DNA from: an uncultured Verrucomicrobia subdivision 3 bacterium | GTDB lineage: Bacteria > Verrucomicrobiota > Verrucomicrobiia > Limisphaerales > UBA11358 | Length of the DNA stretch: 24,000 nt | Assembly: GCA_903922735.1 (NCBI GenBank) | Contig: CAIXUZ010000060.1 | Coordinates: 239,883 to 263,882, forward strand | Reading direction: 5' to 3' | Shown: positions 8,485 through 24,000 of the stretch, piece after piece | Layout of the letters: each line of letters starts with the position of its first letter | How positions within the stretch are numbered: position 1 is the first letter of the stretch | Notes under the pieces: model-generated | Seen by the model: the letters and a program-made list of their open reading frames with translations, nothing else | Told to the model about the DNA's origin: nothing | The model's database searches: none | Translations under genes and position numbers: made by a program

Positions 8485-10149
8485 ATGCAAAAAGATCCGT
8501 CGAAAAAATACCAGCCGTTTCAACACGCGCCGAAATTAACCGACCGCCAGTGGCCGGGCCGCACGCTCACCCACGCGCCGCGCTGGGCGAGCGTGGATTT
8601 GCGCGATGGCAACCAGGCGCTGGCCGTGCCGATGAACGTGTCGCAGAAACTGGAATTATTCCAGACGCTCGTGAAGATCGGCTTCAAGGAAATCGAAGTT
8701 GGTTTTCCGTCCGCGTCGAACACCGAATTCGCCTTCAACCGTTTACTCATCGAAAAAGGCCATGCGCCGGACGACGTGTGGTTGCAGGTGCTGGTGCAGG
8801 CGCGCGAAGATTTAATTGAGCGCACCATCGAATCGCTCGTCGGCGCGAAAAAGGTCATCATCCACATGTATAACTCGACGTCGCCGGCGCAGCGCCGCGT
8901 GGTGTTCGGCAAGTCGAAGGACGAGATCAAGGCCATCGCCGTGAATGGCGCGCAGATGATCAAGGACCGTTTACACCGGCTCACGGAAAATGGAACCGAA
9001 GTGATGTTGCAATATTCGCCGGAAAGTTTCTCGGCGACGGAACTGGAATACGCGAAGGAAGTTTCTGAAGCCGTCATGGATGTCTGGCAGCCGACACCGC
9101 AGCACAAGATGATTTTGAATCTGCCGGACACCGTCGAGGTGGCCATGCCGAACGTATATGCCGACCAGATCGAATGGATCTGCCGCAACATCAAGCAGCG
9201 CGACTCACTCATCATCAGCCTGCACGCTCACAATGACCGCAGCACCGGCGTGGCCGCAACGGAGCTTGGTTTGCTCGCCGGCGCGGATCGCGTCGAAGGC
9301 ACTTTGTTCGGCAACGGCGAACGCACCGGCAATCTGGACATCGTGACCGTGGCATTGAATCTTTACATGCACGGCATCAACCCGAAGCTGGATTTCTCGA
9401 ATCTCCATCCCATCATTGACGTTTACGAGCGTTGCACCGGGATGTCGGTGCCGCCCCGCCAGCCTTATGCAGGCGAACTGGTTTTCACCGCGTTCAGTGG
9501 GTCACATCAGGACGCGATCAAAAAAGGTTTAGCCGAACGGGAGCAGAACGGCGGCCAAGCCCACTGGGATGTGCCGTATCTCACGATTGATCCGGCAGAC
9601 ATCGGCCGCGAATACCGCGAGGTCATCCGCGTCAATTCGCAATCCGGCAAGGGCGGCGTCGCTTACTTGCTGGAAAGTGAATTCGGCATCGAGCTGCCGA
9701 AGGATATGCAGCGCGAGTTCGGCCCCATTGCCAACGACGCCGTGGACCAGCTTGGACGTGAAGTCAGCGGCACGGAACTCAAGGCGATGTTCTGGAAGGA
9801 ATATGTCGAGCGCAGTTCGCCGTGGCAATTGTCCGGTTTTGAAACGGAAAGTAAAAATGGCGTGGTTAAATGCCGCGCAAAATTCCTGCGCTACGGCCAG
9901 CCAGTCGTTTTCTGCGGCGAGGGTAACGGCCCGCTGGCGGCGCTCGTCCATGGTTTGGGAACCGTCGGCGCTCGTTTTGAAATCTCCAATTACAGCGAAC
10001 ACGCCTTAAGTTCCGGGGAAGGTGCGGCGGCGATTTCCTACATCCAGGTCAAATCCGCCGACGGCAAAACCCGCTGGGGCGCGGGCGTGGACACGAATAT
10101 CGAGCTTGCCTCGGTGCGCGCGGTATTGAGCGCGCTAAACCGGTTGTGA
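8485..10149 (+). CDS. leuA: 2-isopropylmalate synthase (long form with C-terminal regulatory domain)
   Basis: Motifs RWASVDLRDGNQAL and LHAHNDRSTGVA...GTLFGNGERTGN are characteristic of alpha-IPM synthase. The 554-aa length fits the long LeuA type. Confidence 0.9.
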   Translation: MQKDPSKKYQPFQHAPKLTDRQWPGRTLTHAPRWASVDLRDGNQALAVPMNVSQKLELFQTLVKIGFKEIEVGFPSASNTEFAFNRLLIEKGHAPDDVWLQVLVQAREDLIERTIESLVGAKKVIIHMYNSTSPAQRRVVFGKSKDEIKAIAVNGAQMIKDRLHRLTENGTEVMLQYSPESFSATELEYAKEVSEAVMDVWQPTPQHKMILNLPDTVEVAMPNVYADQIEWICRNIKQRDSLIISLHAHNDRSTGVAATELGLLAGADRVEGTLFGNGERTGNLDIVTVALNLYMHGINPKLDFSNLHPIIDVYERCTGMSVPPRQPYAGELVFTAFSGSHQDAIKKGLAEREQNGGQAHWDVPYLTIDPADIGREYREVIRVNSQSGKGGVAYLLESEFGIELPKDMQREFGPIANDAVDQLGREVSGTELKAMFWKEYVERSSPWQLSGFETESKNGVVKCRAKFLRYGQPVVFCGEGNGPLAALVHGLGTVGARFEISNYSEHALSSGEGAAAISYIQVKSADGKTRWGAGVDTNIELASVRAVLSALNRL

Positions 10150-11142: not shown

Positions 11143-12246
11143 ATGACAGCGAAACCGGTTGACGCGAACAATCACCACAAAATCTCCGCCCTGGGTGAAA
11201 AGGTTTTAGGCGGAGGCCGTATCACCCATGATGAGGCGATGTTTCTCTTCAACCTTGAATCATCCGCCGATATTCTCGATTTGCTGGCGTGGGCCAACCG
11301 CCTCCGGGAACACTACAAGGGCAACAAGATCCATCTCTGCTCCATTGTCAATGCGAAGGCCGGCGCGTGTTCCGAAAATTGCAGCTTTTGCTCACAATCG
11401 TCGCATTACCAGACCGGCTCGCCGAAATACGGCTTTGTTGATCCCGAGCCCGTGGCTGAAGCCGCCGAGGAGGCGAATAAGAACTCCGTCACGGCCGTCG
11501 GTCTGGTGGCCGCGTGGAAAGGGTTGAACGAAGGACCCCTGCTCGATGAAATTTGCGACCGCGTCCGCGAGATGAAAGTCGCTGGCAAGACGCGCCCCGA
11601 CGTTTCGCTTGGTATCATCAAAAGCCAGCGCATCGCTGACCGCTTGAAAGAAGCTGGCGTCGAATGTTACGGCCATAACCTTGAAAGCTCGCGCCGCTTT
11701 TTCCCACAAACCTGCACCACGCACACGTTCGATGACCGGCTGGAGACCATCGGCTATCTCAAAAAGGCCGGCATCAAGATTTGTTCCGGCGGCATCATCG
11801 GCATGGGCGAAACGCGCGAAGACCGCTGCGACCTGGCGTTTGAATTGAAAGCCATCGGCGCGAATGTCGTGCCCGTAAACATCCTCAATCCCATTCCCGG
11901 CACGCCGTTCGCCCAGAACGCCCCGCTGCCGGTCATGGAAATCCTGAAAACCATCGCCTGCTTCCGTTTCATTTTGCCGCGGCAGGAAATCATGATCGCC
12001 GGCGGACGCACCGTGAACCTGCGCGATGCGCAGAGCATGATTTTCATGGCGGGCGCGAGCGCCCTGATGGTGGGTAATTATCTCACCACGCTGAACCAGC
12101 CGGTGGAAAAAGACCTGCAGATGCTCAAAGACCTCGGCCTCGATCCGAATTGGGACAGTCACGATTTCACTGATCAGGAAACAAGCGTCTGTGGTTGCGG
12201 TGAGACTAACCGCGAAGCAGAAACCGAACTGACCGCCGTGAAATGA
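11143..12246 (+). CDS. bioB: Biotin synthase (radical SAM)
   Basis: The CxxxCxxC motif (CSENCSFC) lies at 11368-11391. YGHNLESS and ICSGGIIGMGET resemble BioB-conserved blocks. The protein is 367 aa. Confidence 0.8.
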   Translation: MTAKPVDANNHHKISALGEKVLGGGRITHDEAMFLFNLESSADILDLLAWANRLREHYKGNKIHLCSIVNAKAGACSENCSFCSQSSHYQTGSPKYGFVDPEPVAEAAEEANKNSVTAVGLVAAWKGLNEGPLLDEICDRVREMKVAGKTRPDVSLGIIKSQRIADRLKEAGVECYGHNLESSRRFFPQTCTTHTFDDRLETIGYLKKAGIKICSGGIIGMGETREDRCDLAFELKAIGANVVPVNILNPIPGTPFAQNAPLPVMEILKTIACFRFILPRQEIMIAGGRTVNLRDAQSMIFMAGASALMVGNYLTTLNQPVEKDLQMLKDLGLDPNWDSHDFTDQETSVCGCGETNREAETELTAVK

Positions 12247-12989
12247 ATCGCCAGCCAGTCACCGGCATGAAATCTGCCTCCTTCACAGCCACGCTTACCT
12301 TATGCCTGTTGCTGGCAATGTCCATCCACGCGAAGGCCCAAGACGCCAAAGGCTCGCTGCGATTGGTGCTCATCGGCGACTCGACGGTTTGCGATTATCC
12401 CACCGACAAACCGCAGCGGGGTTGGGGACAATTTGTTCAGGCCTATTTCAAAGATGAGGTAAAGGTGATCAATCTGGCCAAAGGCGGACGGAGCACGAAA
12501 ACTTTTATTAAAGAAGGACTCTGGCAGAAAACGCTCAATGAAAAACCGGATGTCATCCTGATTCAATTCGGCCATAACGATTCGCACTCGCCGGACAAAC
12601 CCGAAGCGACCAGTGCCAGCACCGATTACAAAGACTATCTGCGCCGCTACATCGACGAAGCGCGCGCGGCAGGAGCGACGCCGGTTTTGATCACTCCGAT
12701 GGTGCGCCGGAATTTTGGCCCGGATGGAAAGCTTAGAGACATTTTGCAACCCTATGCCGAGGCGATGAAACAGGTGGGGGCGGAGAAAAAGGTGCCGGTG
12801 GTTGATTTACACACGTCAAGCTGGGCGCTGGTCGAACCGCTCGGATCTAAAGGCAGCGCCGACATGGCCAGTGCTCCCGGCGACGGCACGCATTTCAACG
12901 GGAAGGGCGCCAAGGCGATGGCGGAACTTGTAATGAAAGAACTCCCAGCCGCTGCGCCGGCATTGCAGAGCCATCTAAAAGGAAAATGA
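12243..12989 (+). CDS. Secreted SGNH/GDSL hydrolase, rhamnogalacturonan-acetylesterase-like
   Basis: All four SGNH blocks are present: LIGDSTV, GGRSTKTF, FGHND and DGTHFN. The signal peptide probably starts at the internal Met (MKSASFTATLTLCLLLAMSIHAKA, ATG 12267). ATG 12243 overlaps the bioB stop (ATGA). Confidence 0.8.
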   Translation: MNRQPVTGMKSASFTATLTLCLLLAMSIHAKAQDAKGSLRLVLIGDSTVCDYPTDKPQRGWGQFVQAYFKDEVKVINLAKGGRSTKTFIKEGLWQKTLNEKPDVILIQFGHNDSHSPDKPEATSASTDYKDYLRRYIDEARAAGATPVLITPMVRRNFGPDGKLRDILQPYAEAMKQVGAEKKVPVVDLHTSSWALVEPLGSKGSADMASAPGDGTHFNGKGAKAMAELVMKELPAAAPALQSHLKGK

Positions 12990-13014
12990 CGCCCTGCTCA
13001 GCCGCCATTTCAAA

Positions 13015-13049
13015 GCCGGGTTGAAACTTCAGCCCGGCGTTTTTCTTTT
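13015..13049 (+). terminator. Rho-independent terminator after the SGNH hydrolase gene
   Basis: The stem GCCGGG (13015-13020) / CCCGGC (13033-13038) is followed by GTTTTTCTTTT. Confidence 0.7.
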
Positions 13050-13175
13050 CATAAATTATATCCATGGACCACGACCTGGTGGCGCCCAGCAGGATTTGGC
13101 TCGACAACTGGCATCGCCGGAAATAGGGTCGTGCCGGTTTAGCAACCCAGCGAACCGGAAAATCGAGGTGACATC

Positions 13176-13466
13176 ATGCACGTTGTGATCCGCACATATT
13201 ACGGCAAAGGCACCAAAGCACTGTTCGACGCCGGTGAGCAGCACAAAGCCGAGCTGCAGCGCCTTATGCGCACCGTTGAGGGACTGGTCAGCTACACGCT
13301 GGTCCGCGACGGCCAAGGCGGTTATTCCGTGACCGTCTGCAAAGAAAAACGCGCCCTCCGGCAAAGCCGTAAAAAAGCCGTGGAATTCCTCAGCAAACAT
13401 GCTCCGGGGAAGAACTTGGCCGCCATGCACATCTACGAAGGCAAAGTCATCGCCCACGTCCAATAA
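13176..13466 (+). CDS. Small hypothetical protein (96 aa), possibly ferredoxin-like/ABM-type fold
   Basis: GAGGTG lies 6 nt upstream of the ATG. Third positions are G/C-rich. The fold guess rests only on the overall pattern (MHVVIRTYYGKG...GLVSYTLVRDGQGGYSVTVC) and is weak. The larger antisense ORF 13056..13550 was rejected. Confidence 0.6.
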   Translation: MHVVIRTYYGKGTKALFDAGEQHKAELQRLMRTVEGLVSYTLVRDGQGGYSVTVCKEKRALRQSRKKAVEFLSKHAPGKNLAAMHIYEGKVIAHVQ

Positions 13467-13641
13467 GCGGCGCGGAATCCGGATCGCCGGTTTTCCAAAG
13501 CACCGGCTCCCAGTGGTGGCACCACCTGCCAAGATGCTCGTTCCACCCAATTTTGACGGAAACGGCGCTAAAATGTTGATTTTAAACTGCTTCCAGCGAT
13601 TTTTGCCTTGGAAACGCCCGTTTTGAGCTTGGGAGAAAACG

Positions 13642-13851
13642 TTTTTCCCAAGGGGATTTTCTTTTTTCCCAAGGGGTAAAAGGTTTTTCCCAAGGGAAAT
13701 CTCTCTTTCCCCAAGGGGAAAACGCTTTTTCCCAACGGAAATCCCTCTTTTCCCAACGGGAAAATGTCTTTCCCCAAGGGGATTTTCTCTTTTCCCAAGA
13801 GGAAAATGGTTTTTCCCAAGGGAAATTTTATTTTCCCCAAGCCTAAAAGGT
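13642..13851. repeat. Ten tandem 21-bp repeats with core TTTYCCCAAGGGRAAA
   Basis: The CCCAA anchor recurs at 13647, 13668, 13689, 13710, 13731, 13752, 13773, 13794, 13815 and 13836, exactly 21 bp apart with no indels. Many units carry a 7-bp inverted repeat (TTTTCCC..GGGAAAA). Degenerate or inverted copies lie just upstream (13600-13641, e.g. CTTGGG at 13628-13633). Confidence 0.9.
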
Positions 13852-14129
13852 CGGGCTGAAGCCGGTCAGGCCGGATCCGGACGGTTTCCAATCATACCCG
13901 GGACAAACCTCCTCTCCCAGCGGGTTGGCCGAGGTAAAAACAGCTATCGCCAGCGCGCCTCATGGAACTGGAGGACGTTCAATACCTCATCGCCGAGGCC
14001 ATCAAAGAACTGGGGCCGGCGTAACGACGCGCCGCCTTTGCTGAACCGCTCGGCAAGGAAATCACCGGCGTAAAAAAGCGATGGACAGGAACTTACCGAC
14101 CAAATAGAGTCAAACCTTAAAAAAGGATA

Positions 14130-14163
14130 GGCCAACAAACCCGCCGTCCATTATCTGTTGGAC
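14130..14163 (+). other. Short inverted pair of integron-type core sites (GGCCAAC ... GTTGGAC); truncated attC or attI-like simple site
   Basis: GGCCAAC (14130-14136) and GTTGGAC (14157-14163, fits GTTRRRY) are separated by 20 nt. That is too short for a normal attC. GTTGGAC is the exact reverse complement of the R'' box of the next attC (14680-14686). Confidence 0.4.
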
Positions 14164-14796
14164 ATCATAGCACGCGTATGCGAATCCCGACAATTGCCAC
14201 CCTTCTGATTCTGCTCTCTTACGCATCAGTCGTTCGCGCCGACGAGCCCCTCGCGCCGCCGGCACGCTACGAAGTGCAGAACTCGTCCCACAAGTATGTT
14301 GCCACTCTCGATCCGAAGACCGGCGTGGCGGTGCGCGCCACGGGTTCTTCCAACATCCTCTGGACAGCGACGAACTGGTTTCGAGTCGCCTTTCTAGCAG
14401 ATGATGGCCATCACTTTGTTACAGGTTGCGACGGCATGAACCTCATTCCCCAAGATTACACGAAAGACCTGGTGTTGGTTACCTTCTGGCAACAGGACAA
14501 GAAGATTCGAGACCTGACCGTGGGAGAGTTGTTTCCAGACACGCGCATTTTGGAGAAGACTGTTTCGCACTATCACTGGGGCAGCATCACGGGCATCACG
14601 AATAGCACGCTGATTGTCAGCAGATGCGACGGCAAGGTGGTGCGGTTTGACGTGACCACCGGGAGGATCACGAAATGATGTCCAACAAGGCGCTGGAGCC
14701 AACAGCCGTTATGCCACTCACTTTGATGATCACCGACCACATCACATCACCGACTTCGGTCACGCCGCTTTCCACGGCTGTGGCTCAGCTTGGTCG
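14158..14796 (+). mobile_element. Putative integron gene cassette 1 (ORF + attC)
   Basis: It is bounded by G|TTGGAC (14157|14158) and G|TTAGGC (14796|14797). It contains one ORF that starts 20 nt after the left boundary and ends 1 nt before its attC. Circularising it would give R' GTTGGAC, perfectly complementary to its own R'' GTCCAAC. Confidence 0.65.
14178..14678 (+). CDS. Hypothetical secreted protein (166 aa), cassette-borne
   Basis: The signal peptide is MRIPTIATLLILLSYASVVRA|DE. I recognise no family. The ORF fills the cassette. Confidence 0.7.
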   Translation: MRIPTIATLLILLSYASVVRADEPLAPPARYEVQNSSHKYVATLDPKTGVAVRATGSSNILWTATNWFRVAFLADDGHHFVTGCDGMNLIPQDYTKDLVLVTFWQQDKKIRDLTVGELFPDTRILEKTVSHYHWGSITGITNSTLIVSRCDGKVVRFDVTTGRITK

Positions 14797-14802
14797 TTAG
14801 GC
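14680..14802 (+). mobile_element. Integron attC recombination site (123 bp)
   Basis: R'' is GTCCAAC (14680-14686, fits RYYYAAC). A 5-nt unpaired spacer follows. Left arm GCTG[G]AGCCA[A]CAGCCGT (14692-14709) pairs with ACGGCTGTGGCTCAGC (14774-14789), giving 16 bp with two single-base bulges (G14696, A14702). A variable loop spans 14710-14773, followed by a 6-nt spacer. R' is GTTAGGC (14796-14802, fits GTTRRRY). The site starts 2 nt after the ORF stop. Confidence 0.75.
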
Positions 14803-14822
14803 GCACTTGCGCTCCATCATAA

Positions 14823-15188
14823 ATGAAATCCATTCGAGAGCACGTCCGGTCAGAGTGGCTATACAAGTTGAGCGTGTATTTGTGTGCCACCGTGCCTCTT
14901 TGCTTGGGACTGATTTGGATATACACATTTGGATTTACGTCCTATCGCAGCCATTTGCGCTTTGTTGGTATCCCACTTGGCTTTGCATTCGTCGCTCTTG
15001 CAGTTAGCATGATGGCGATGCGCATATGGGCAGTTATGATTTCAGTAGTTCTTGCATTAGCTACCACCATTTTCTCATTTATGGTTGCCCTCTTAGGGCT
15101 TTGGTTTTATTGGAGTGTCGTGTTCCTCGGTGTTGCTTATGTGACCATCATTTTCGAGCGATTCCGCAACCGAGATACTTGGACATGA
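14823..15188 (+). CDS. Hypothetical small membrane protein (121 aa, ~3-4 TM helices), cassette-borne
   Basis: Hydrophobic segments include VYLCATVPLCLGLIWIY, IPLGFAFVALAVSMMAM, VMISVVLALATTIFSFMVALLGLWFYWSVVFLGVAYV. Codon usage is visibly more A/T-ending than in neighbouring genes. The ORF starts 26 nt after the G|TTAGGC boundary. Confidence 0.6.
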   Translation: MKSIREHVRSEWLYKLSVYLCATVPLCLGLIWIYTFGFTSYRSHLRFVGIPLGFAFVALAVSMMAMRIWAVMISVVLALATTIFSFMVALLGLWFYWSVVFLGVAYVTIIFERFRNRDTWT

Positions 15189-15195
15189 TAGATGC

Positions 15196-15228
15196 GCCTA
15201 ATATCAGGATAGGCTGCAAAGATTAGAC
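15196..15228 (+). other. Degenerate or terminal attC remnant (GCCTAAT ... ATTAGAC)
   Basis: GCCTAAT (15196-15202) lies 7 nt after the ORF stop. It is the exact complement of A+TTAGGC, where TTAGGC is the first 6 nt of this putative cassette. Two downstream xTTRRRY-like sites begin with A: ATTAGAC at 15222-15228 and ATTAAGC at 15293-15299. There is no convincing long stem, so this call is weak. Confidence 0.35.
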
Positions 15229-15240
15229 GAATTTCTGAAA

Positions 15241-15282
15241 ACAAAAAAGCGCGGACGGCTTTCGCCCTCCGCGCTTTTGAAT
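15241..15282. terminator. Bidirectional rho-independent terminator between convergent genes (cassette ORF and pnp)
   Basis: The stem AGCGCGGA (15248-15255) / TCCGCGCT (15268-15275) is flanked by an A-run on the left (ACAAAAAA) and a T-run on the right (TTTTGAATTT). Confidence 0.75.
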
Positions 15283-15293
15283 TTCCTGGCTGA

Positions 15294-17435
15294 TTAAGCC
15301 TTGGGCGCTTCGGCCGCCGCGGCTTCCTTGTCGCGGTCTTCCATCGCGGCTTTGCGCGAGAGGCGGACGCGGCCTTTTTCATCCACGCCGAGGCATTTTA
15401 CGGTGATGTCATCGCCGACCTTGCAGATGTCTTCCGTGTTCTTCACGCGGAAGTTCGCCAGTTCGCTGATGTGCACCAGGCCGTCCTTGCCCGGGAGGAA
15501 TTCGACGAACGCGCCGAATTCTTTCACGGTCACCACCTTGCCGCGGTAAATCTTGCCGATTTCCGCTTCCGCCGTGCAGCCGGTGATGGCGTCCACGGCG
15601 ATCTTCATGCCCTCCGCCGAGACGGAGAAAATGTTGACCGTGCCGTCGTCCTCGATGTCGATTTCGCAGCCGGATTCCTCGACGAGGCGCTTGATGTTCT
15701 TGCCGCCGGGCCCGATGATCGCGCCGATCTTCTCGGGGTTGATCTTGAGCGTGGTGATGCGCGGGGCGTATTTGCTGATGTCCTTGCGCGGCTCGGCAAT
15801 GGTCTTGGCCATCTCGGCGAGAATCGCGAGGCGGGCAATGCGGGCTTTTTCCACCGCAATGTCCATGATGGCATGCGGGAGGCCTTTGAGCTTCAAGTCG
15901 AGCTGGAAGCCGGTGATGCCCTTCTCGGTGCCGGCAATTTTGCAGTCCATGTCGCAATACGCGTCTTCCCAGCCGATGATGTCGGTGAGGAGCTGGTATT
16001 TGGAGATGGTGTTGCCGCTGTATTCCGTGCAGATGCCGACGCTGATGCCGGCCACCGGGCGGATCATCGGGACACCGGCGTCGAGCAGCGCGAGCGTGCC
16101 GCCGCAGACGGATGCCATGGAGGTGGAACCGTTGGATTCCATGATTTCGCTGGTGACGCGAATGGTATAGGGATAATTCGCCGTCGGAATCATGGATTCA
16201 ATCGATCGTTCGGCGAGGGCGCCGTGGCCGATTTCGCGGCGGCCGGGACCGCTGATGCGGCCGGTTTCGCCGACGGAGAAATTCGGGAAGTTGTAGTGCA
16301 GGATGAATTTCTTCTCGTTCGAGCCGCCGGTGTAGGAATCAAATTCCTGCGTGTCATCGCCGGTGCCGAGCGTGACGAGCGAAACGGCCTGCGTTTCGCC
16401 GCGGGCAAACAAGGCCGAGCCGTGCGCGCGGGGCAGGATGCTGACTTCGCTGGAGATCGGGCGGACCTGTTCAAAATTACGGCCGTCGAGACGCTTGCCG
16501 CTTTCGAGGATCAATTTGCGGACGGCTTCCTTCTGGATGTAGTAGAAAGCGTCGTTGATGACGAAGGGCGTGACTTTTTCGGCGCCGTATTTGGCGACGA
16601 GCTTTTCGCCGACTTCGTTCTTGATGGCGTTGCACGCGGCTTCGCGGTTGAGCTTGCCGGGCAGGAGCAGCGCGGGGACGAAACGGTCGCCGGCGAGGGC
16701 TTTCGCATCGGCGAGAATTTCGTCGGGGACGATCTTGAGCGTGATTTCGCGCTTTTTCTTGCCGACTTTCGCGACGAGTTCCTTCTGCGCCGCGATGATC
16801 GGCTGGATGGCTTCCTGGGCGAATTTCAAAGCCGCGCTGAAGTCGGCTTCAGAAATTTCCTTGGCCGCGCCTTCATACATGACGATGTCTTTTTCGTTGC
16901 CGACATAGACAAGATCGAGATCGCTCTCGGCCTGCTCGGCGTGCGTGGGGTTCGCCACGAACTTGCCACCGATGCGGCCGATGCGCGCCGCCCCGAGCGG
17001 GCCGGCCCACGGAATGTCGGAAACCATCAACGCGGCGCTCGCGCCGACGATGCTCAAAATATCGGGATCGTTCTCGCCGTCCGCGCTCAGCAGCACGGTC
17101 TGGACCTGGACTTCGTTATACCAGCCCTTCGGAAAGAGCGGGCGGATCGGGCGGTCGGTGAGGCGGCAGGTGAGAATTTCCTTTTCCGTCGGACGGCCTT
17201 CGCGCTTGAAATAGCCGCCGGGGAATTTGCCGGCCGCGGCCGCCTTTTCGCGATAGTCCACGGTGAGCGGGAAGAAGTCCTGGCCTTCCTTGGCCTTGGT
17301 CGCGGCCACGGCGGCCACGATGACGATGGTTTCGCCCATCTGGACGGTCACGGCTCCGTCCGCCTGCTTGGCCAATTTGCCGGATTCAATAATGATCTGT
17401 TTGTCGCCGATGGCGGCGGTAATTTTCTCTGACAT
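15294..17435 (-). CDS. pnp: Polyribonucleotide nucleotidyltransferase (PNPase)
   Basis: The 713-aa protein has two RNase PH-like halves, a KH region ([27 protein letters not shown]) and a C-terminal S1 domain ([20 protein letters not shown]). It shows the canonical rpsO-pnp arrangement. The antisense ORF 15471..17432 is an artefact. Confidence 0.95.
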
Positions 17436-17450
17436 AACTGCTTTCTTTCA

Positions 17451-17517
17451 CCGCCTCCCGAGGAACTTCAGTGAACCCCGAAAGATTTCGGAGCTGAATG
17501 AAATTTCCCGAAGGCGG
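17451..17517 (-). promoter_or_regulatory. Long imperfect hairpin in the pnp 5' leader (possible processing/autoregulation site)
   Basis: The outer arms CCGCCT (17451-17456) / AGGCGG (17512-17517) enclose further partial complementarity (GGAA/TTCC, CTTCAG/CTGAA) and an inner CCGAAA..TTTCGG element. Pairing was judged by eye only. Confidence 0.3.
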
Positions 17518-17574
17518 AATTTTTACGCGAGGTTTTGGTGGTGGAATCGGGGCGTTCGCGCGGACAACCAAATT

Positions 17575-17620
17575 CCAAAAACGAAAGGCGGGCTTGTAGT
17601 TAGAAAAAACCGCGCCTTCC
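17575..17620 (-). terminator. Terminator/attenuator hairpin downstream of rpsO
   Basis: On the minus strand, GGAAGGCGCGG pairs with CCCGCCUUUC (about 10 bp, one bulge, one G.U). The loop is 17 nt. GUUUUUGG follows. The large loop lowers confidence. Confidence 0.5.
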
Positions 17621-17634
17621 GTAAATTGATTAAC

Positions 17635-17892
17635 TTACCGGCGCAGCTTGAGCTTCTTGGTGACGTCCTGATAACGGCTCACATCCGCATCCTTGAGGTA
17701 GTCAAGCAGGCGGCGGCGCTGGCCGACCATCATCAGCAAACCACGGCGGGAGCTGTGATCTTTCTTGGCAGTCTGCAAATGCTCGGTCAAATGGTTGATG
17801 CGCTGGGTGAGCAGCGCGATTTGCACATCGGCGGAACCGGTGTCCTTGGCGTGCGTCTTGAATGTTTCAATCGTCTTGGTCTTCGCTTCCAT
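17635..17892 (-). CDS. rpsO: 30S ribosomal protein S15
   Basis: The 85-aa protein carries [23 protein letters not shown]...[23 protein letters not shown], the hallmark S15 sequence. Confidence 0.95.
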
Positions 17893-17912
17893 AAATATTA
17901 AATGAGCTCGGG

Positions 17913-17941
17913 AAGATAATTATTTGCTTTAACGGTGTAAA
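17913..17941 (-). promoter_or_regulatory. Candidate sigma70-type promoter for rpsO
   Basis: On the minus strand TTTACA (17941-17936) is followed by a 17-nt spacer and TATCTT (17918-17913). The site lies about 20 nt upstream of the rpsO ATG in an A/T-rich gap. This is a pattern match only. Confidence 0.3.
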
Positions 17942-17946
17942 GCGAA

Positions 17947-19353
17947 TTAAGCCGCCATTTTTGATTGTTTCCACACAAACTGACGGCGGGTCTGCCCGGT
18001 CAGCTTGAATTTTTCGCCGATGCGCAGGCCCTCCACCCAGAAAATTTCGCCGGTGCCCGTCGTGGCCAAAACCAGTTCGCGACGCCGCGCGGCGGGAATT
18101 TTGGCGTTCATGAACAAATCCTGCAACTTCACCGCCGACTTTAAGCCGATCGGCTGGAAGCGATCACCCGCACGCCAGTGGCGCAATATGATTTCGCCGC
18201 CGATTTTGTCCGCATCGAAAAACTCTGTCTGGTGGGGCGAGCGTCCCCGCGAGCCGCTGTATTTTTTCACCGCCCAGTAAATTTCCAGAGCACCCAACTC
18301 AAACCGCCCCGCCCTGCCCGATAACTTAATTTTCAATTCATCCGCGTTGAATGCAGCCGCCGCATGCTTCCGTAACGTGATCTTCCCGTCCCCGTTGCGG
18401 GCGATGGACAAACCGGAACCGACACTCACAAATTTCCCGGGCGACTGGCGCAATTGCTCGATCAACTCAAAATCCGCAGGCATGCCCGCCGGGATAAGTT
18501 GTCGCTGTAAAACTTTACGTTGCACGGCGACGGATAACTGGTCAAAACCGTTTACGCTTTCCGCTTTACGCTTTACGCTTTTGTTTTCAAGCCAGTTCCG
18601 CGCCGCAGCGCTGGCAAATTCCGCCTCGGCACCAACAATTTCCATCAGGCGCAAAACGGTCTTTTCCACGCCCCGCTGGTAGTTTTTCCGCAGCCGGGGC
18701 AACAGATCATTCCGGATCCGGTTGCGCAGATAATCCGCAGAATCATTCGAGGCGTCGTGGCGGAACCGCATTTTATTTTCCCGCGCCAGTACCAGCAGTT
18801 CCGCCTTGGTCAAGCCCAGCAGCGGGCGGACGAGTGAGATTTTTTTGTCCACCGGCGAGGATGATCGCCATTTCATGCCCGCCAGACCTTCGCCGCCGGA
18901 ACCGCGCAGCCAGCGCAGGAAAAAAAGCTCCACCTGATCATCCGCATGGTGCGCCAGAGCCACAACGGAAAGCTTTTCCTGCCGCGCCACGCGGGCAAGA
19001 AATTCATGGCGCAGATTGCGGGCAGCCATTTCGACGGAGAGCTTTGACTGCACAGCCAAACCGAAAACATCGCCCCGGCCGCTAAAGAACGGCAGCCCCA
19101 TTTTTTTTGCGGTCTGGCGGACGAAGGCTTCATCGGCATCACTGGCCCGGCCCCGCAGGCGGTGGTTGAAATGCGCGACCGAAAGGCTCCAGCGATTTGC
19201 CTGGGCAAGAACGTGGAGTGCGTGCAGCAAAACCATCGAGTCCACGCCGCCGGAGACGGCGACGAGGATTTTCTGCTCACGCGGAAGCAACCGGCGCTGC
19301 TGAATCGAGGCTTCCACCCGCTGGAGGATGTGGCTCACGCAACCAGCTTGCAT
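17947..19353 (-). CDS. tilS: tRNA(Ile)-lysidine synthetase
   Basis: The PP-loop motif ILVAVSGGVDSMVLLH lies near the N-terminus. The protein is 468 aa and has the typical TilS C-terminal region (RHWRAGDRFQPIGL). Confidence 0.85.
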   Translation of the reverse strand: MQAGCVSHILQRVEASIQQRRLLPREQKILVAVSGGVDSMVLLHALHVLAQANRWSLSVAHFNHRLRGRASDADEAFVRQTAKKMGLPFFSGRGDVFGLAVQSKLSVEMAARNLRHEFLARVARQEKLSVVALAHHADDQVELFFLRWLRGSGGEGLAGMKWRSSSPVDKKISLVRPLLGLTKAELLVLARENKMRFRHDASNDSADYLRNRIRNDLLPRLRKNYQRGVEKTVLRLMEIVGAEAEFASAAARNWLENKSVKRKAESVNGFDQLSVAVQRKVLQRQLIPAGMPADFELIEQLRQSPGKFVSVGSGLSIARNGDGKITLRKHAAAAFNADELKIKLSGRAGRFELGALEIYWAVKKYSGSRGRSPHQTEFFDADKIGGEIILRHWRAGDRFQPIGLKSAVKLQDLFMNAKIPAARRRELVLATTGTGEIFWVEGLRIGEKFKLTGQTRRQFVWKQSKMAA

Positions 19354-19385: not shown

Positions 19386-22300
19386 TCAGGGGGCCCGTTT
19401 CAGCCGGTAGAAACGCAACATAAAGTTTGTGGCCTGCAGGTCGGTAAACTGCCAGGTGCCGCTGGCATCAAGAGTGTTGGTGGCCGCCGGCAGCCAGGTG
19501 GCAGGGTAGAGTTCCTCCGTGATTTCCAGAATGTATTGGCGCCCCGGGGTGCCGCCGAGTTGCAAAGTCACGCCACCATTGCCAGCAAGCACAACGCCGG
19601 AGATAATTGGCACGGGGTCGCGGACAATGACCGTGCGGCTGGCCATGTTGGTGTTGCCGCTGCCGTCGTTGGCGGTGTAGCTCAGCTGATTCGTGCCGGC
19701 GGTGTTGGTGTTGACCGTGCCGCTGACGCTGACAGGCACTACACCGGCACAAGTATCAACCGCGGTCGCGCCGGGATCGGTGAACGTGCTGCCGAGGTCG
19801 AGATACAATGGATTGCTGCCATTGAGCGTGATGACCGGCGGCGTCTGATCCCGCACGACGATGCGGTTGGTCGAATAGGCGGCGTTGCCGGAGGCGTCTT
19901 TTATGATGATCACGACCGGGTTGGTTCCAAGTGACAAAACCGCAGCGTTAGTCGGGCTTTGAAAAATTGTCAGCGCGCCGGAAAAATCAACGGCGCGAAT
20001 ACAGTTGGTTCCGGTGACATCCGGCATGACCGCGCTGCAATTCGTGTCCGCCGCCACCACGAGATTCGTGAAGCTCCACAAAATTGTCGGCGGCGTGGTG
20101 TCGCGCACGATGACCGTGCGCATGGCGGTGTTGGTGTTGCCGCTGCCGTCCACGGCCGTATAAGTCAGCAGGTTGGTGCCCAGAGCATTGACATTGACTG
20201 TGCCGTTCGTCGTCAAAAGCGCGAGTCCGGTACAAGTATCACTGGCGCTAACGCCCGGATCAACGAACGCAGCGCCCAATTCATTCGTCAGCGGGTTGAA
20301 ACCGTTGAGCACGATGACCGGCGGCGTCTGGTCGCGCACGATAACGCGGTTGGTGGAATAAGTTTTGTTGCCGGAGCCGTCGGCCACGGTGATGACCACC
20401 GCGTTGGTGCCCAGCTGCAAAATTGCATTATTGGTTGGACTTTGCGTTATCGTCAGCACCCCGGACAAATCGGTGGCGTTGACAAAATTGGTCCCGGTTA
20501 CATCCGGCATGACGGCGCTGCAATTTGTGTCCGCCGCCACCACCAGATTCGTGAAGCTCCAAAGGATCACGGGCGGCGTGGTGTCTCGAACCATGACGGT
20601 GCGCGTGGCGGTGTTGGTGTTGCCGCTGCCATCAGTGGCCGTGTAAGTCACGGTGTTCGTGCTGATGGCACCGGTATTGACGGGGCCAGCGATATTGACG
20701 GCCATCAAACCGGCGCAGAGATCATAAGCTGCCGCGCCCGGCTCGGTGTAAACGCCGCCCAATTCGATGTAAAAGGGATTGGTGCTGTTGAGCGTGATGA
20801 CCGGCGGCCGGGTGTCAAACACATTCAGGACCGCGTTGCTCGTGACGCTGCTGTAAAGGTTGGTGACGGTGACGGCGACGGTGTGGCTGGATGAAGTCAG
20901 ATTGGTGAGGCCGAAGCTGCTGTTGGTCGCGCCGGTGACGGGCGAACCGTCCAAATTCCATTGGATGCTCAAAGGCGACGTGCCGGCAGCGGTGATGGAA
21001 AAAATGTTGGTGTTCACGCCACACTCGCCGGTGCGGTTGGAGATGGAACTGGCGGTGATGGTCGGCGGCAACACCACGGTCAATGTGGCGACGGAACTGG
21101 TGATGGAGCCGTAGGCGTTGGTGACAACGAGGGTGTAGTTGCCGCTGTTGGCGGGCGTGATGCCGGTCAGGTTCAGGACATTCGTGGTCGCACCGGAAAC
21201 CCCGGAGCCGTTGGCGAGATTGATGCCGTTAGTGCGCCATTGATACGCCAGCGGCGGCGTGCCGGTGGCAGCGGCGGTAAAGGCGACATTGCCGCCGGCC
21301 AAGCCGGTTTGGCTGATGGGCGGCTGCGGGATGGCTGGCAAATTGACCGGCGTGACGGAAATGTCGTCGAGAGCAAACGAACGCGAAAAACTCGAAGCGG
21401 AGTTCAATCCAAACTGGAGCGGGGTGTTCGTGCTGGTGGCGGTGACGATGAATTTCTGGTTGTTCCAAGTAGTGGGCGGAGCAGTGGTGCTATAGACGGT
21501 GGAACCATTCCAATTCGCTTGGAACGATTGCCCGGTTCGAGTGCTTGAGACCAAAAACCAAAATGAAAGCTGGTAGGTTTGCCCCGGAACCGTGGGTAAA
21601 TTCTGGGTAATATAGCCCAGGGAATTTGCCGTCGCCTTGAGGCCATAAGCGCCGGAATGGACATAGCTCGTCGAACTGCTTACCGCAAAGGAACTTGAAC
21701 CCCCTGACAACGCCCAGCGGGTGAAATCGCCGGTTTCAAACCCGCCGTTCTGGACGATGTTCTGTCCAACCGCTATGGAAAAAAGCAGGCTTTGCGTCAG
21801 GTGACTGGACTGGTTTGAAAGCACGAGGGTCGCGGTGTAAATATTGCTGGATAAAGTTGCCATGCTGGCGTTGGTGGCAACAGTCACGGAAACCGAACTG
21901 TTGCCGCCCAGGGTTCCGCTGCTGGCGGAAACCGAGAGCCAGGCGGAAGTGTTGATGAGGCTCCAAGCTACCGCGCTGGCGGACAGGTTGGTGAACACAA
22001 CGGCTTGGGAACCGGGGTTGAACGGCCCGCCCACCGCTCCAGCGGCGGTGAATCCGTTGGTGGTCAGCAGCAGCAGCGAGTCGATAATTTGAATTGTAAA
22101 TTGGCGGCTTTGAAGAACGCCGCTGGTCTGATTCGAGAAACCAACCGTCGCGGTATAATTTCCAGGTGCGAAGCCATTGGCGACGGAGTTCAAACTGATG
22201 ATCACGGTGGTTTGCCCGGCAGGCGCCAGAGTGCCGCTGCTGGAAGAGACATTGAGCCAGGCCGACGTGTTAATAACCGACCAGTCGAATGAGGCAACGT

Positions 22301-24000
22301 CGGAATTGGTGAGCGTAAAAATTTGGGATGCGGGTGAGAACGGACCGCCAGCCAGTCCGCTTGAGGAAAATCCAATCGCCGGTGCAACCCCCAGTGAGTC
22401 GGCGGTGCCGGCCAGCGCATCGATCAAGGTCTGGCCGTTAGGCGTGCCCCAGCCGGTGCAAAGATCAAAGCCGGCCACGGCCGGATAATTGCCCGAACTG
22501 CCGGACCATGAGTTGTCCCCCGTCATGATGTCGTGAAAACAGGTGGCGTAACCGAAATTCGGATTCAAGCCTTTGCCGATGGCATAAATTGCCGGGTTAA
22601 TGAACCCGGCGGGCGGATTGCCGATACTCGCCGCCTGTTGATTGACGAGCGCCATAAAACCAGCCCACAACGGCGCGGCGCAACTGGTGCCGCTGGCGAT
22701 TTCCTGCTTGTTCGTGTCGGCGATGATAAACACATTCTTCCCTGTCAGCGCCACATCCGGCAAATTGCGCCTCGCCGTCGAGCCTAGATTGGCGGTCATG
22801 CTGATGCCTTGCTGCCAGCCCGGAATGGCGTACGTGGGGCTCACGCCGCCGCTGCTGCCCCAGTTGCCGCCGTTGGGGTTGACGGTGCGGTCGTTCCAAA
22901 CCGTTTCCGAAACATAGGCGCCGCCGGCACTGGCGGTGGACAACACCGTGCCTCCGACCAACGTTATGTTCGTATTATCCAATAGGAACGGGATGGAAGT
23001 GGTGTAGGCATCATTATCCCCGGAGGCGCAAAAAAACGACTGCCCCTGCGCGGCCATCTGCTTGAAAATTCCGTCCACGGCGGGGTCGGAAGCACCGCCG
23101 CCCCAGGAGCAGCTGATTTGTTTTGCCAGATTATCATTGGCGATGCGGCTCAGAATCGTTGACCAGGCGGTCGAACCATTGGGCGCCTCATAAACATAAA
23201 TTTTGGAAACACCCGGTGCCATCGCGATGACCATTTCTATGTCCAGACAGACTTCACCGTTGCCCGCGCCGGGAATGGAAACCCCGCCATTCACCGGCAC
23301 GTTGGTGATACTGATGGGATAACCCGTCAAGCCGGCCTGGCTGATATAAGCCGCGATGTCGTTGGAAACATAACCATCAAATTGCAGGAGGGCGACGTTT
23401 TGTCCGGTGCCCGTCAAACTCACTCCCGGCACATAAGCCGCCCGAAAATCTCCGCCCATATAGCTGCCACTGGTGCCCGACCCGGCGTTGGGAACCGCGC
23501 CGGAGGCGGCAATCGGTCGTTCGATTCTTGAATTCGGATGTGGCAGGGAGAAATTATCCAAACCGCTGACGTGCAAAATCGGCAATGCTGAATCAACGGT
23601 GGGTTCGGCGTCCGGCGCAAAAAATTCTCGCGGTTCGTCCGGATGGTCGTACCGGTTCAGCTTGATTTGAAAAGCCTGCTCGATGTTTGCCACGCTGCCT
23701 GCCACATCCAGCACCTGCCGGTTGGAATGTTCACCGGTGATTTTGAAACCCTTTGCCAGCGCAAAATTTCTTACCGCCGCATAATCCGCCTCGGTCGCGC
23801 TGAAACGCGCCGCGAATTCCTCCGGCGTCAAAAAGTGACGGTAATGGGCGCTGGCCGGACTGTAAACGTCCGCCAGAAACTGATCCAGCCCCGCCGGATC
23901 GCGCAGCGGCACGCCGATGGCCAGAGGCAGTTCGTCGGTGCCCGGCAGACGGCCCTTCGGCGTAAATTGCGACCCCGCCGCCGGCACATGACCGCGCAGA
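19386..24000 (-). CDS. Giant secreted S53 (sedolisin/kumamolisin-type) peptidase with multiple beta-sandwich/Ig-like/DUF5011- and HYR-like modules; N-terminus outside window
   Basis: The frame stays open to the window edge (…LRGH upstream of the tracked GTG at 23987). A pro-kumamolisin-type activation domain is present (SPASAHYRHFLTPEEFAARF). Catalytic motifs are GEVCLDIEMV and SGTSCAAPLW (Ser codon 22683-22685). Downstream lie two WxxINTSAWL...GNYTATV-type beta-sandwich repeats, a lectin/CBM-like module (NIVQNGGFETGDFTRW) and Ig I-set-like repeats (YQWRTNG...NSGNYTLVVTNAYG). These are followed by alternating DUF5011-like/HYR-like modules and a ~75-aa C-terminal domain. Confidence 0.85.
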   Translation of the reverse strand, partial: LRGHVPAAGSQFTPKGRLPGTDELPLAIGVPLRDPAGLDQFLADVYSPASAHYRHFLTPEEFAARFSATEADYAAVRNFALAKGFKITGEHSNRQVLDVAGSVANIEQAFQIKLNRYDHPDEPREFFAPDAEPTVDSALPILHVSGLDNFSLPHPNSRIERPIAASGAVPNAGSGTSGSYMGGDFRAAYVPGVSLTGTGQNVALLQFDGYVSNDIAAYISQAGLTGYPISITNVPVNGGVSIPGAGNGEVCLDIEMVIAMAPGVSKIYVYEAPNGSTAWSTILSRIANDNLAKQISCSWGGGASDPAVDGIFKQMAAQGQSFFCASGDNDAYTTSIPFLLDNTNITLVGGTVLSTASAGGAYVSETVWNDRTVNPNGGNWGSSGGVSPTYAIPGWQQGISMTANLGSTARRNLPDVALTGKNVFIIADTNKQEIASGTSCAAPLWAGFMALVNQQAASIGNPPAGFINPAIYAIGKGLNPNFGYATCFHDIMTGDNSWSGSSGNYPAVAGFDLCTGWGTPNGQTLIDALAGTADSLGVAPAIGFSSSGLAGGPFSPASQIFTLTNSDVASFDWSVINTSAWLNVSSSSGTLAPAGQTTVIISLNSVANGFAPGNYTATVGFSNQTSGVLQSRQFTIQIIDSLLLLTTNGFTAAGAVGGPFNPGSQAVVFTNLSASAVAWSLINTSAWLSVSASSGTLGGNSSVSVTVATNASMATLSSNIYTATLVLSNQSSHLTQSLLFSIAVGQNIVQNGGFETGDFTRWALSGGSSSFAVSSSTSYVHSGAYGLKATANSLGYITQNLPTVPGQTYQLSFWFLVSSTRTGQSFQANWNGSTVYSTTAPPTTWNNQKFIVTATSTNTPLQFGLNSASSFSRSFALDDISVTPVNLPAIPQPPISQTGLAGGNVAFTAAATGTPPLAYQWRTNGINLANGSGVSGATTNVLNLTGITPANSGNYTLVVTNAYGSITSSVATLTVVLPPTITASSISNRTGECGVNTNIFSITAAGTSPLSIQWNLDGSPVTGATNSSFGLTNLTSSSHTVAVTVTNLYSSVTSNAVLNVFDTRPPVITLNSTNPFYIELGGVYTEPGAAAYDLCAGLMAVNIAGPVNTGAISTNTVTYTATDGSGNTNTATRTVMVRDTTPPVILWSFTNLVVAADTNCSAVMPDVTGTNFVNATDLSGVLTITQSPTNNAILQLGTNAVVITVADGSGNKTYSTNRVIVRDQTPPVIVLNGFNPLTNELGAAFVDPGVSASDTCTGLALLTTNGTVNVNALGTNLLTYTAVDGSGNTNTAMRTVIVRDTTPPTILWSFTNLVVAADTNCSAVMPDVTGTNCIRAVDFSGALTIFQSPTNAAVLSLGTNPVVIIIKDASGNAAYSTNRIVVRDQTPPVITLNGSNPLYLDLGSTFTDPGATAVDTCAGVVPVSVSGTVNTNTAGTNQLSYTANDGSGNTNMASRTVIVRDPVPIISGVVLAGNGGVTLQLGGTPGRQYILEITEELYPATWLPAATNTLDASGTWQFTDLQATNFMLRFYRLKRAP
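19612..20815. repeat. About 2.5 tandem copies of a ~480-bp intragenic repeat (DUF5011-like + HYR-like module pair)
   Basis: Compare 20031-20180 with 20511-20660, and also with 19600-19740. Long runs are identical, for example GTGTCCGCCGCCACCAC, GATTCGTGAAGCTCCA and GGCGGTGTTGGTGTTGCCGCTGCC. At protein level TTPPVILWSFTNLVVAADTNCSAVMPDVTGTN matches TTPPTILWSFTNLVVAADTNCSAVMPDVTGTN. Confidence 0.8.

Follow-up and report, generated by a model that had tools for sequence, protein, structure and literature searches.

The attC sites of integron gene cassettes follow well-described structural rules. It is the arm opposite the bottom-strand AAC triplet that carries the extrahelical bases, of which the inner is a conserved T and the outer usually a G, and a 6-bp stem separates the two; the central spacer is unpaired and 5–6 nt long, and the sites range from 57 to 141 bp (PMC5027507). 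Integrons in Verrucomicrobia have already been described, as have attC-site clusters that have no integron integrase (CALINs) (PMC4889954), single attC sites lacking integron integrases (SALINs) and insertion at attG sites (bioRxiv 10.1101/2022.09.11.507474). A SALIN is defined as a single attC associated with a coding sequence, away from any integrase or further att site (bioRxiv 10.1101/2022.09.11.507474). For a CALIN, the criterion applied here is two or more attC sites inside 4 kb with no integrase in the vicinity. The integrons of the Verrucomicrobia are known but have been little studied. Here we describe a 24-kb stretch of DNA (the window, 24,000 nucleotides of contig CAIXUZ010000060.1, assembly GCA_903922735.1) from an uncultured Verrucomicrobia subdivision 3 bacterium, in which an earlier reading of the letters alone (the sequence-only reading) had pointed to an attC-type site between two orphan open reading frames (ORFs). 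We are confident that positions 14680–14802 are a functional-looking attC (attC1) closing a 639-bp cassette (14158–14796) that carries the first of these frames, ORF1, in an integrase-less remnant of a mini-array. This mini-array runs from a decayed attC (attC0, a tentative identification taken up below) through the ORF1 cassette to a 3'-truncated cassette with the second frame, ORF2, and occupies a hypervariable spot between orf96 and pnp in a Verrucomicrobial chromosome (Table 1).

With the attC of sedentary chromosomal integrons (the 59-base element; IntegronFinder, PMC5027507), attC1 shares the R''/R' inverse core and core, the 5–6-nt spacer, the two extrahelical bases on the expected arm, the inner T and a possible 6-bp spacing between them, the long variable terminal structure typical of chromosomal integrons and a length within the known limits. 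It likewise stands right after the stop of a promoterless ORF and has an R'' that complements the 5' end of its own cassette. However, its outer extrahelical base is a C instead of the usual G, its L box comes from a Verrucomicrobia-wide family (GAGCCAAC / GTGGCTC) that sets it apart from proteobacterial attC types and, unlike chromosomal integrons, it has no integrase in cis.

The likeness to the integrase-less clusters (CALIN/SALIN) consists of a chromosomal cassette with its attC, no intI or intI pseudogene nearby, the small size of the cluster, and cassette genes of unknown function; as in those clusters, the cassette could be mobilisable in trans. In contrast to a CALIN there is one passing attC here, with flanking remnants that suggest a former cluster of at least three sites. 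Unlike in other integrase-less clusters, the last cassette has lost its attC and become fixed, and the remaining site seems, to judge from a population variant, to have undergone exchange recently. Complete Verrucomicrobial integrons (we refer to the loci used for comparison by L numbers; here L008 and that of Horticoccus sp. 23ND18S-11, L033) have the attC architecture in common with the window, and in addition L008 shares the ORF1 cassette family (75% identity), the boundary GTTGGAC and the R'' GTCCAAC, and L033 and others share the L-box motif. These loci differ from the window in having a divergent or adjacent intI above the TIGR02249 cutoff and arrays of up to ~19 attCs in the part that was fetched.

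The element is therefore an integron site of an already known type, since integrons, CALINs and SALINs have been described, including in Verrucomicrobia, and the current understanding of integrons is unchanged by it. What it documents is that, in Verrucomicrobia, a complete integron and a chromosomal site without integrase have a cassette in common. The locus and its population variant provide a modest natural example for how SALINs and CALINs arise and whether they are active in trans. The apparent ongoing exchange at an integrase-less site and an L box conserved across many Verrucomicrobial lineages are mildly interesting.

Architecture of the attC site

The 123 bp of attC1 contain all the parts of an attC (Table 1). 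The stem is made of 16 Watson-Crick pairs and two unpaired bases, both in the 5' arm of the top strand, i.e., the same arm as the top-strand AAC. These extrahelical bases are G14695 or G14696 and A14701 or A14702, the choice being ambiguous within each doublet. The inner one reads T in the bottom strand, and a 6-bp stem (GAGCCA/TGGCTC) is possible between the two. The loop shows no sequence conservation. The crossover point is located between G14796 and T14797, and TTAGGC belongs to the next cassette.

Table 1. Features of the locus, in window coordinates
Feature	Position	Strand	Basis or remark
bioB	11143-12246		upstream neighbour
GDSL lipase	12243-12989		upstream neighbour
orf96, small conserved gene	13176-13466	+	
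lineage-specific segment (tandem array, attC0 remnant, both cassettes), from orf96 to the pnp terminator	13467-15222	.	relatives
probable attC0 remnant: R''-like GGCCAAC, spacer AAACC, 15 nt, R' GTTGGAC	14127-14163	+	non-significant model match
cassette 1, 639 bp: TTGGAC, ORF1 and attC1 through its G	14158-14796	+	three-way alignment
ORF1, 166-aa secreted protein, signal peptide and all-beta domain	14178-14678	+	AlphaFold model
attC1, recombination site of the ORF1 cassette	14680-14802	+	sequence read, structural scan, R1/R2 models; recombinogenic strand is the bottom (-) strand, top is +
R'' box GTCCAAC (fits RYYYAAC)	14680-14686	+	sequence
spacer AAGGC, 5 nt	14687-14691	+	sequence
L'' box and 5' stem arm GCTGGAGCCAACAGCCGT	14692-14709	+	sequence and scan
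variable terminal structure, 64-nt loop	14710-14773	+	aligns to model insert states
3' stem arm and L' box ACGGCTGTGGCTCAGC	14774-14789	+	sequence and scan
spacer TTGGTC, 6 nt	14790-14795	+	sequence
R' box GTTAGGC (fits GTTRRRY)	14796-14802	+	sequence
truncated cassette 2, ORF2 but no attC	14797-15222	+	homolog comparison
ORF2, 121 aa, membrane protein	14823-15188	+	inside cassette 2
pnp	15294-17435	-	downstream neighbour
tilS	17947-19353	-	downstream neighbour

A structural scan of both strands of the window was carried out for RYYYAAC...GTTRRRY pairs 50–160 nt apart that enclose a stem with no more than two bulges on the 5' arm. The sole candidate with a stem of 8 bp or more was attC1. Among 300 shuffles of the whole window that preserved dinucleotides, one reached a stem of 11 bp and the others no more than 8 bp, compared to the 16 of attC1. 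The bottom strand of the site was more stable than the top by 2.2 kcal/mol, the same direction as reported for attC sites (PMC5027507).

Further evidence came from two surrogate attC covariance models (R1 and R2), built from sites in intI-linked arrays of other Verrucomicrobia. Using the integron integrase (IntI) of L008 as probe, we fetched 80 integrase loci, nearly all from Verrucomicrobiota, out of at least 584 relatives. The L-box motif of the window (GGAGCCAA ... GGCTCAGC, with no more than one mismatch in each) was present 58 times in 16 of these loci, among them Limisphaerales, subdivision 3, Opitutaceae and Horticoccus. The 58 sites were the training set of R1. When aligned, they support an attC structure of 24 pairs (84.8% paired); the covariation was 0.263, a value that none of 500 shuffles reached (0.082 in shuffles). 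Since the R1 sites had been chosen by the window's own motif, 34 attCs having L boxes of other sequence, from 13 further loci, served for R2, by way of a model-guided alignment (A4); a MAFFT alignment of these non-family attCs (A3) had its inner stems out of register and was dropped. R1 gave attC1 a score of 64.3 bits (E 3e-14). With R2 the site reached 62.2 bits (E 1.4e-15), falling to 7.3 bits on the minus strand, i.e., the model matches were specific to the plus strand. As a reference, known array attC sites score between 32 and 77 bits with these models.

The proposal of the sequence-only reading that a complete attC lies here is thus borne out, the covariance models having been surrogates trained on intI-linked Verrucomicrobial sites. 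The boxes, spacers, stem and loop are all found where it had placed them, with the reservation that each of the extrahelical bases it named (G14696 and A14702) may be shifted by one within its doublet. The arm on which these bases fall is the expected one, both being opposite the AAC triplet in the bottom strand, and the length it had considered normal for an attC is indeed inside the described range. Raw-sequence reading is hence confirmed as able to recognise attC sites.

In the alignment of the 58 sites from 16 loci (A2), even distant Verrucomicrobial lineages have almost the same L boxes (GAGCCAAC / GTGGCTCA) and spacer (CTTTGAC), with free covariation in the inner stems; for attC sites, this sequence conservation is unusually strong. 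The outer extrahelical position can be G, A or C (top strand) across the family. That the L box is far more conserved than in proteobacterial attCs hints at a sequence-specific reading of it by the Verrucomicrobial IntI clade. Many of the Verrucomicrobial integron integrases (L008, 7498–8814, and relatives in L011–L090) are ~430–440 aa long and have an N-terminal extension of ~130 aa without Pfam match that is conserved among relatives (matches start at residues 10–26), and other IntI relatives align only from residue 111 or 132. In L052 (10001–20509) a cassette array with 14 family attCs is found downstream of intI and on the same strand, an inverted-integrase arrangement and not the usual divergent one.

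Weak model matches were also obtained in the window at 9146–9313 (minus), 3674–3712 (minus) and 9695–9724, all of them inside long ORFs and with 7–13 bits, and were treated as chance. The first contains a perfect 7-bp R-box-like inverted pair (GCCGAAC...GTTCGGC) inside a 554-aa ORF, with attC-like spacers and 168 nt apart, and at model scores of 7.0–7.6 bits is probably fortuitous.

The ORF1 cassette, its neighbours and variation at the locus

The stop codon of ORF1 (TGA) is at 14676–14678, and R'' begins 2 nt past it. The Pfam search gave no match for ORF1 or ORF2. The confident AlphaFold model of ORF1 (predicted local distance difference test score of 89.7) produced weak matches to beta-propeller blades (TM ~0.43). 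Cargo of unknown function is usual for chromosomal cassettes. We found 34 homologs of ORF1, all of them from Verrucomicrobial metagenome-assembled genomes or metagenomes. One of these, 75% identical, belongs to L008 (GCA_024233215.1, JACKPW010000001.1) and is located between two attC sites (61.7 and 52.4 bits). Two cassettes upstream of it is a divergent tyrosine recombinase of 438 aa, which reaches 375.7 bits with the TIGR02249 integron integrase model (cutoff 265). The upstream attC of this homolog ends in GTTGGAC and, precisely as seen in the window, the downstream R'' GTCCAAC comes 2 nt after the stop. Further cassette-borne homologs are found in L009 and, within a 20-gene array, in L119.

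In the three-way alignment of the window, L008 and L009, homology begins exactly at GTTGGAC (14157), with unrelated flanks, and runs through ORF1 to GTCCAACAAG, ending 3 nt after R''. This GTTGGAC (14157–14163) is the exact reverse complement of R'' GTCCAAC, and because the crossover falls between G and TT, such complementarity is the classical signature of a cassette. To see how general this rule is, we examined six Verrucomicrobial arrays, which gave 73 pairs of adjacent attCs: R'' was perfectly complementary to the R' of the preceding site in 63 pairs and to its own R' in only 24. In the window, all seven bases of R'' are complementary to the upstream GTTGGAC and five of the seven to its own R'. 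ORF1 is a real gene cassette. The position of the site 2 nt after a stop codon, which the sequence-only reading had likened to that of gene cassettes, recurs in L008. Its guess of a genome of the Planctomycetes-Verrucomicrobia-Chlamydiae (PVC) group is right, all relatives being Verrucomicrobiota. The only matches of the ORF1 model are generic beta-propeller blades.

A homolog of ORF1 (64% identity) in L121 (8001–9895) is directly followed by a 463-aa gene with a faint DUF6242_C match and no attC, and two attCs are located on the opposite strand ~3 kb away, an arrangement indicating that the ORF1 family is also found outside simple cassettes. The cassette array of L008 contains inside it two copies (11458–13623 and 16185–18350) of an IS91-family Y2 transposase together with a 337-aa tyrosine recombinase, the latter with 153.8 bits on the integron-integrase model, i.e., below the cutoff. 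The same locus also carries an IS110 element and a PhdYeFM/YoeB toxin-antitoxin cassette.

Upstream of the ORF1 cassette, the remnant that we call attC0 gave a match (14129–14164) of 10.7 bits with R1, the second best of this model, and of 11.6 bits with R2, among the top ones (E ~0.25–0.3). The models align its R box only and no hairpin forms. We tentatively consider 14127–14163 as a probable attC from which the L boxes and the stem have been deleted. One more attC further upstream (13842–13935, GCCTAAA AGGTC GGGCTGAAGCC...) was contemplated and rejected, as it had no model match and folded worse than shuffles (z +0.99).

Downstream, ORF2 codes for a small multi-pass membrane protein with four known homologs. 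One of them (P0038, in L093) is located between two intact 52-bit attCs, with boundary GTTAGGT and R'' ACCTAAC. The 5' end of the ORF2 cassette in the window is TTAGGC and its R'' would hence be expected to read GCCTAAC. At 15196–15202, 8 nt past the ORF2 stop, we found GCCTAAT, only one base off, a position that in L091 reads GCC-AAC; the homology between the window and L091 stops at 15198. Judging from these letters, GCCTAAT is possibly the decayed R'' of cassette 2. The homology of the backbone with relatives restarts after this cassette, at 15223–15239. The attC of ORF2 has been lost, and ORF2 is consequently fixed in place. The alternative of a minimal attC at 15196–15214 (GCCTAAT...GATAGGC) was rejected, since it forms a 5-bp hairpin only and is homologous to the region following the ORF2 homolog of L091.

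Close relatives were found by probing the Joint Genome Institute (JGI) metagenomes with the GDSL lipase. The three loci obtained (L094, L118 and L095) keep the GDSL-orf96-pnp order, and L094 is 95% identical to the window in bioB, 90% in GDSL and 93% in orf96. Their orf96-pnp gap measures 283–445 bp, compared to 1828 bp in the window, and none of the three loci has an attC. The similarity to the window ends at the orf96 stop (13465) and restarts at 15223–15239 in the pnp terminator, so that, the relatives being cassette-free, 13467–15222 is lineage-specific DNA. In addition, the orf96-pnp region (7218–7500 in L094, 558–1000 in L118 and 7158–7493 in L095) is different and unalignable in every close relative, and looks like a hypervariable insertion spot beside the pnp terminator.

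Contig L005, from the same metagenome project and present in 2 samples, is 100% identical to the window over 14781–15271 (ORF2 and the pnp terminator). Upstream of this stretch, however, it has unrelated DNA with a reverse-strand ORF and another attC, 99 nt long, whose R'' reads GCCTAAC and whose L boxes and two extra bases are those of attC1. This attC scores 57.8 bits, and its bottom strand folds canonically (z −2.6). L005 is a real allele of the locus, or else the assembler has merged in a second location of ORF2. Either way, the ORF2 cassette stands behind two different attCs at the expected crossover. The variant suggests that exchange at attC1 may have been recent in the population. The kind of presence or absence to be expected of a cassette, by which the sequence-only reading would have its site judged, is thus seen twice: the segment is missing in relatives with flanking proteins 90–95% identical, and in L005 ORF2 follows another attC.

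By analogy with known attC sites, recombination would start with the folding of the single-stranded bottom strand into a hairpin. In its R box, GCCTAAC would pair with GTTGGAC; next would come the unpaired central spacer, whose two sides measure 5 and 6 nt, and the 16 bp of L box and stem, where the arm opposite the AAC triplet bears the extrahelical C and T, the 64-nt variable loop closing the structure. Integron integrase would bind the R and L boxes as two monomers, and the bottom strand would be cut between the last A and the final C of GCCTAAC, equivalent to G14796/T14797 in the top strand. Strand exchange with an attI or another attC could then lead to excision or insertion of the cassette, with an IntI presumably encoded outside the locus. 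We propose, as a tentative idea with the odds rather against it, that the mini-array still recombines in trans in this way in a natural Verrucomicrobial population, the ORF1 and L005 cassettes alternating at the orf96-pnp locus before the fixed attC-less ORF2 and IntI reading the L box.

Classification and origin of the element

Several observations weigh against a functional attC in an integrase-less mini-array. No integrase or remnant of one was detected in the 24-kb window by tblastn with the L008 IntI (best E 0.32), an absence that the sequence-only reading had already noted. attC1 is the only site in the window with a significant model score, and its activity would need an IntI from elsewhere. 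On the bottom strand, C takes the place of the usual G as its outer extrahelical base, and its R''/R' pairing consists of five Watson-Crick pairs, one G-T and one mismatch. The fold energy of the isolated 123-mer is unexceptional compared to shuffles (z = −1.22 on both strands), and its minimum-energy fold is non-canonical, pairing CCAA/TTGG and not the full R box. Finally, a repeated ORF2 cassette could have made the assembly of L005 chimeric; ORF2 would then still stand behind two different attCs, though not necessarily at this locus.

With one intact attC and no integrase, the window corresponds to the definition of a SALIN. A single passing attC is one too few for a CALIN, and the adjacent intI with the IntI-specific insertion that marks a complete integron is absent from the 24 kb. 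Formally, the element is a SALIN or a decayed mini-CALIN. The suggestion of the sequence-only reading that it was a CALIN-type cluster or the distal end of a chromosomal integron is hence correct as to the lack of an integrase and needs two refinements: with one intact attC the element is not a CALIN of two or more good sites, and it is not the distal end of a large chromosomal integron, because housekeeping genes bound it within ~2 kb on both sides.

Concerning its origin, we lean slightly towards the remains of a longer cassette array or integron that has lost its integrase and in which the neighbouring attCs were eroded by internal deletions. The R'' and spacer of the upstream remnant at 14127–14163 (GGCCAACAAACC) are close to the family consensus (GYCYAACAAGNC), GCCTAAT stands where the R'' of cassette 2 should be, with GCC-AAC in its place in L091, and the homologs of ORF2 elsewhere retain intact attCs. 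A possible further trace is GTTGGCC at 13924–13930, which in the sequence as read is exactly complementary to GGCCAAC. However, the remnants are individually non-significant (E ~0.25), the site proposed at 13842–13935 has neither structure nor model match, the window contains no intI pseudogene, and the housekeeping genes at 2 kb or less on both sides imply that any former array was small.

The absence of an intI remnant would instead suit a second route, to which we give a distinctly smaller chance, in which an integrase encoded elsewhere put one or more cassettes into the orf96-pnp region through attG, later ones arriving via the resident attC. SALINs and small CALINs have been proposed to arise so (bioRxiv 10.1101/2022.09.11.507474), the relatives are without the whole segment, and L005 suggests continued attC x attC exchange. 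Yet a clean attC x attG product should have at its right end an intact attC and then genomic TT, which is not the case here, orf96 and the first cassette boundary are separated by ~690 bp of further lineage-specific DNA (the tandem array described below is part of it) and, since the intergenic region differs in every relative, the empty target site cannot be rebuilt. On balance the remnants favour the decay of a small array over founding through attG, and the two are not exclusive.

That the segment is not an attC at all but an unrelated palindrome (a repetitive extragenic palindrome-like element, a terminator, a structured small RNA or the end of a miniature inverted-repeat transposable element) with RYYYAAC and GTTRRRY ends by chance is very improbable: its ordinary fold energy, its location between two convergently terminated regions near the pnp terminator and the lack of a nearby integrase would fit, but Rfam searches, whether with the gathering threshold or with E values up to 10, gave nothing relevant and no attC match, a 64-nt loop without T-tract is not that of a terminator, the window has one copy of the site, its scores of 62–64 bits are strand-specific and come from models whose training sites belong to integrase-linked arrays, and homologous cassettes are found in a complete integron with identical boundary logic.

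Other observations in the window

The tandem array that adjoins the cassette remnants upstream (13631–13841) is made of ~10 units of 21 bp (TTTTCCCAAGGGGAAAnnnnn), each of them a mini inverted repeat followed by Ts, with a higher-order period of 42 at 80% match. It is absent from the relatives, and its motif was not found in any of the fetched loci. On the minus strand it reads as FPLGKxx heptads (ORF 13568–13891). A library search gave 360 matches, including P0040 with a similar repeat and a similar C-terminal flank, indicating that homologous arrays occur elsewhere. Such ORFs may be DNA repeats miscalled as coding sequences.

An antisense ORF of 164 aa (13056–13550, minus) fully overlaps orf96 (plus strand) and is probably spurious, because relatives conserve orf96 better (93% vs. 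76%). Beyond tilS, a 483-bp tandem duplication (~2 copies, 73–76% match) was found at 19810–20808, inside a 1533-aa minus-strand ORF (19386–23987).

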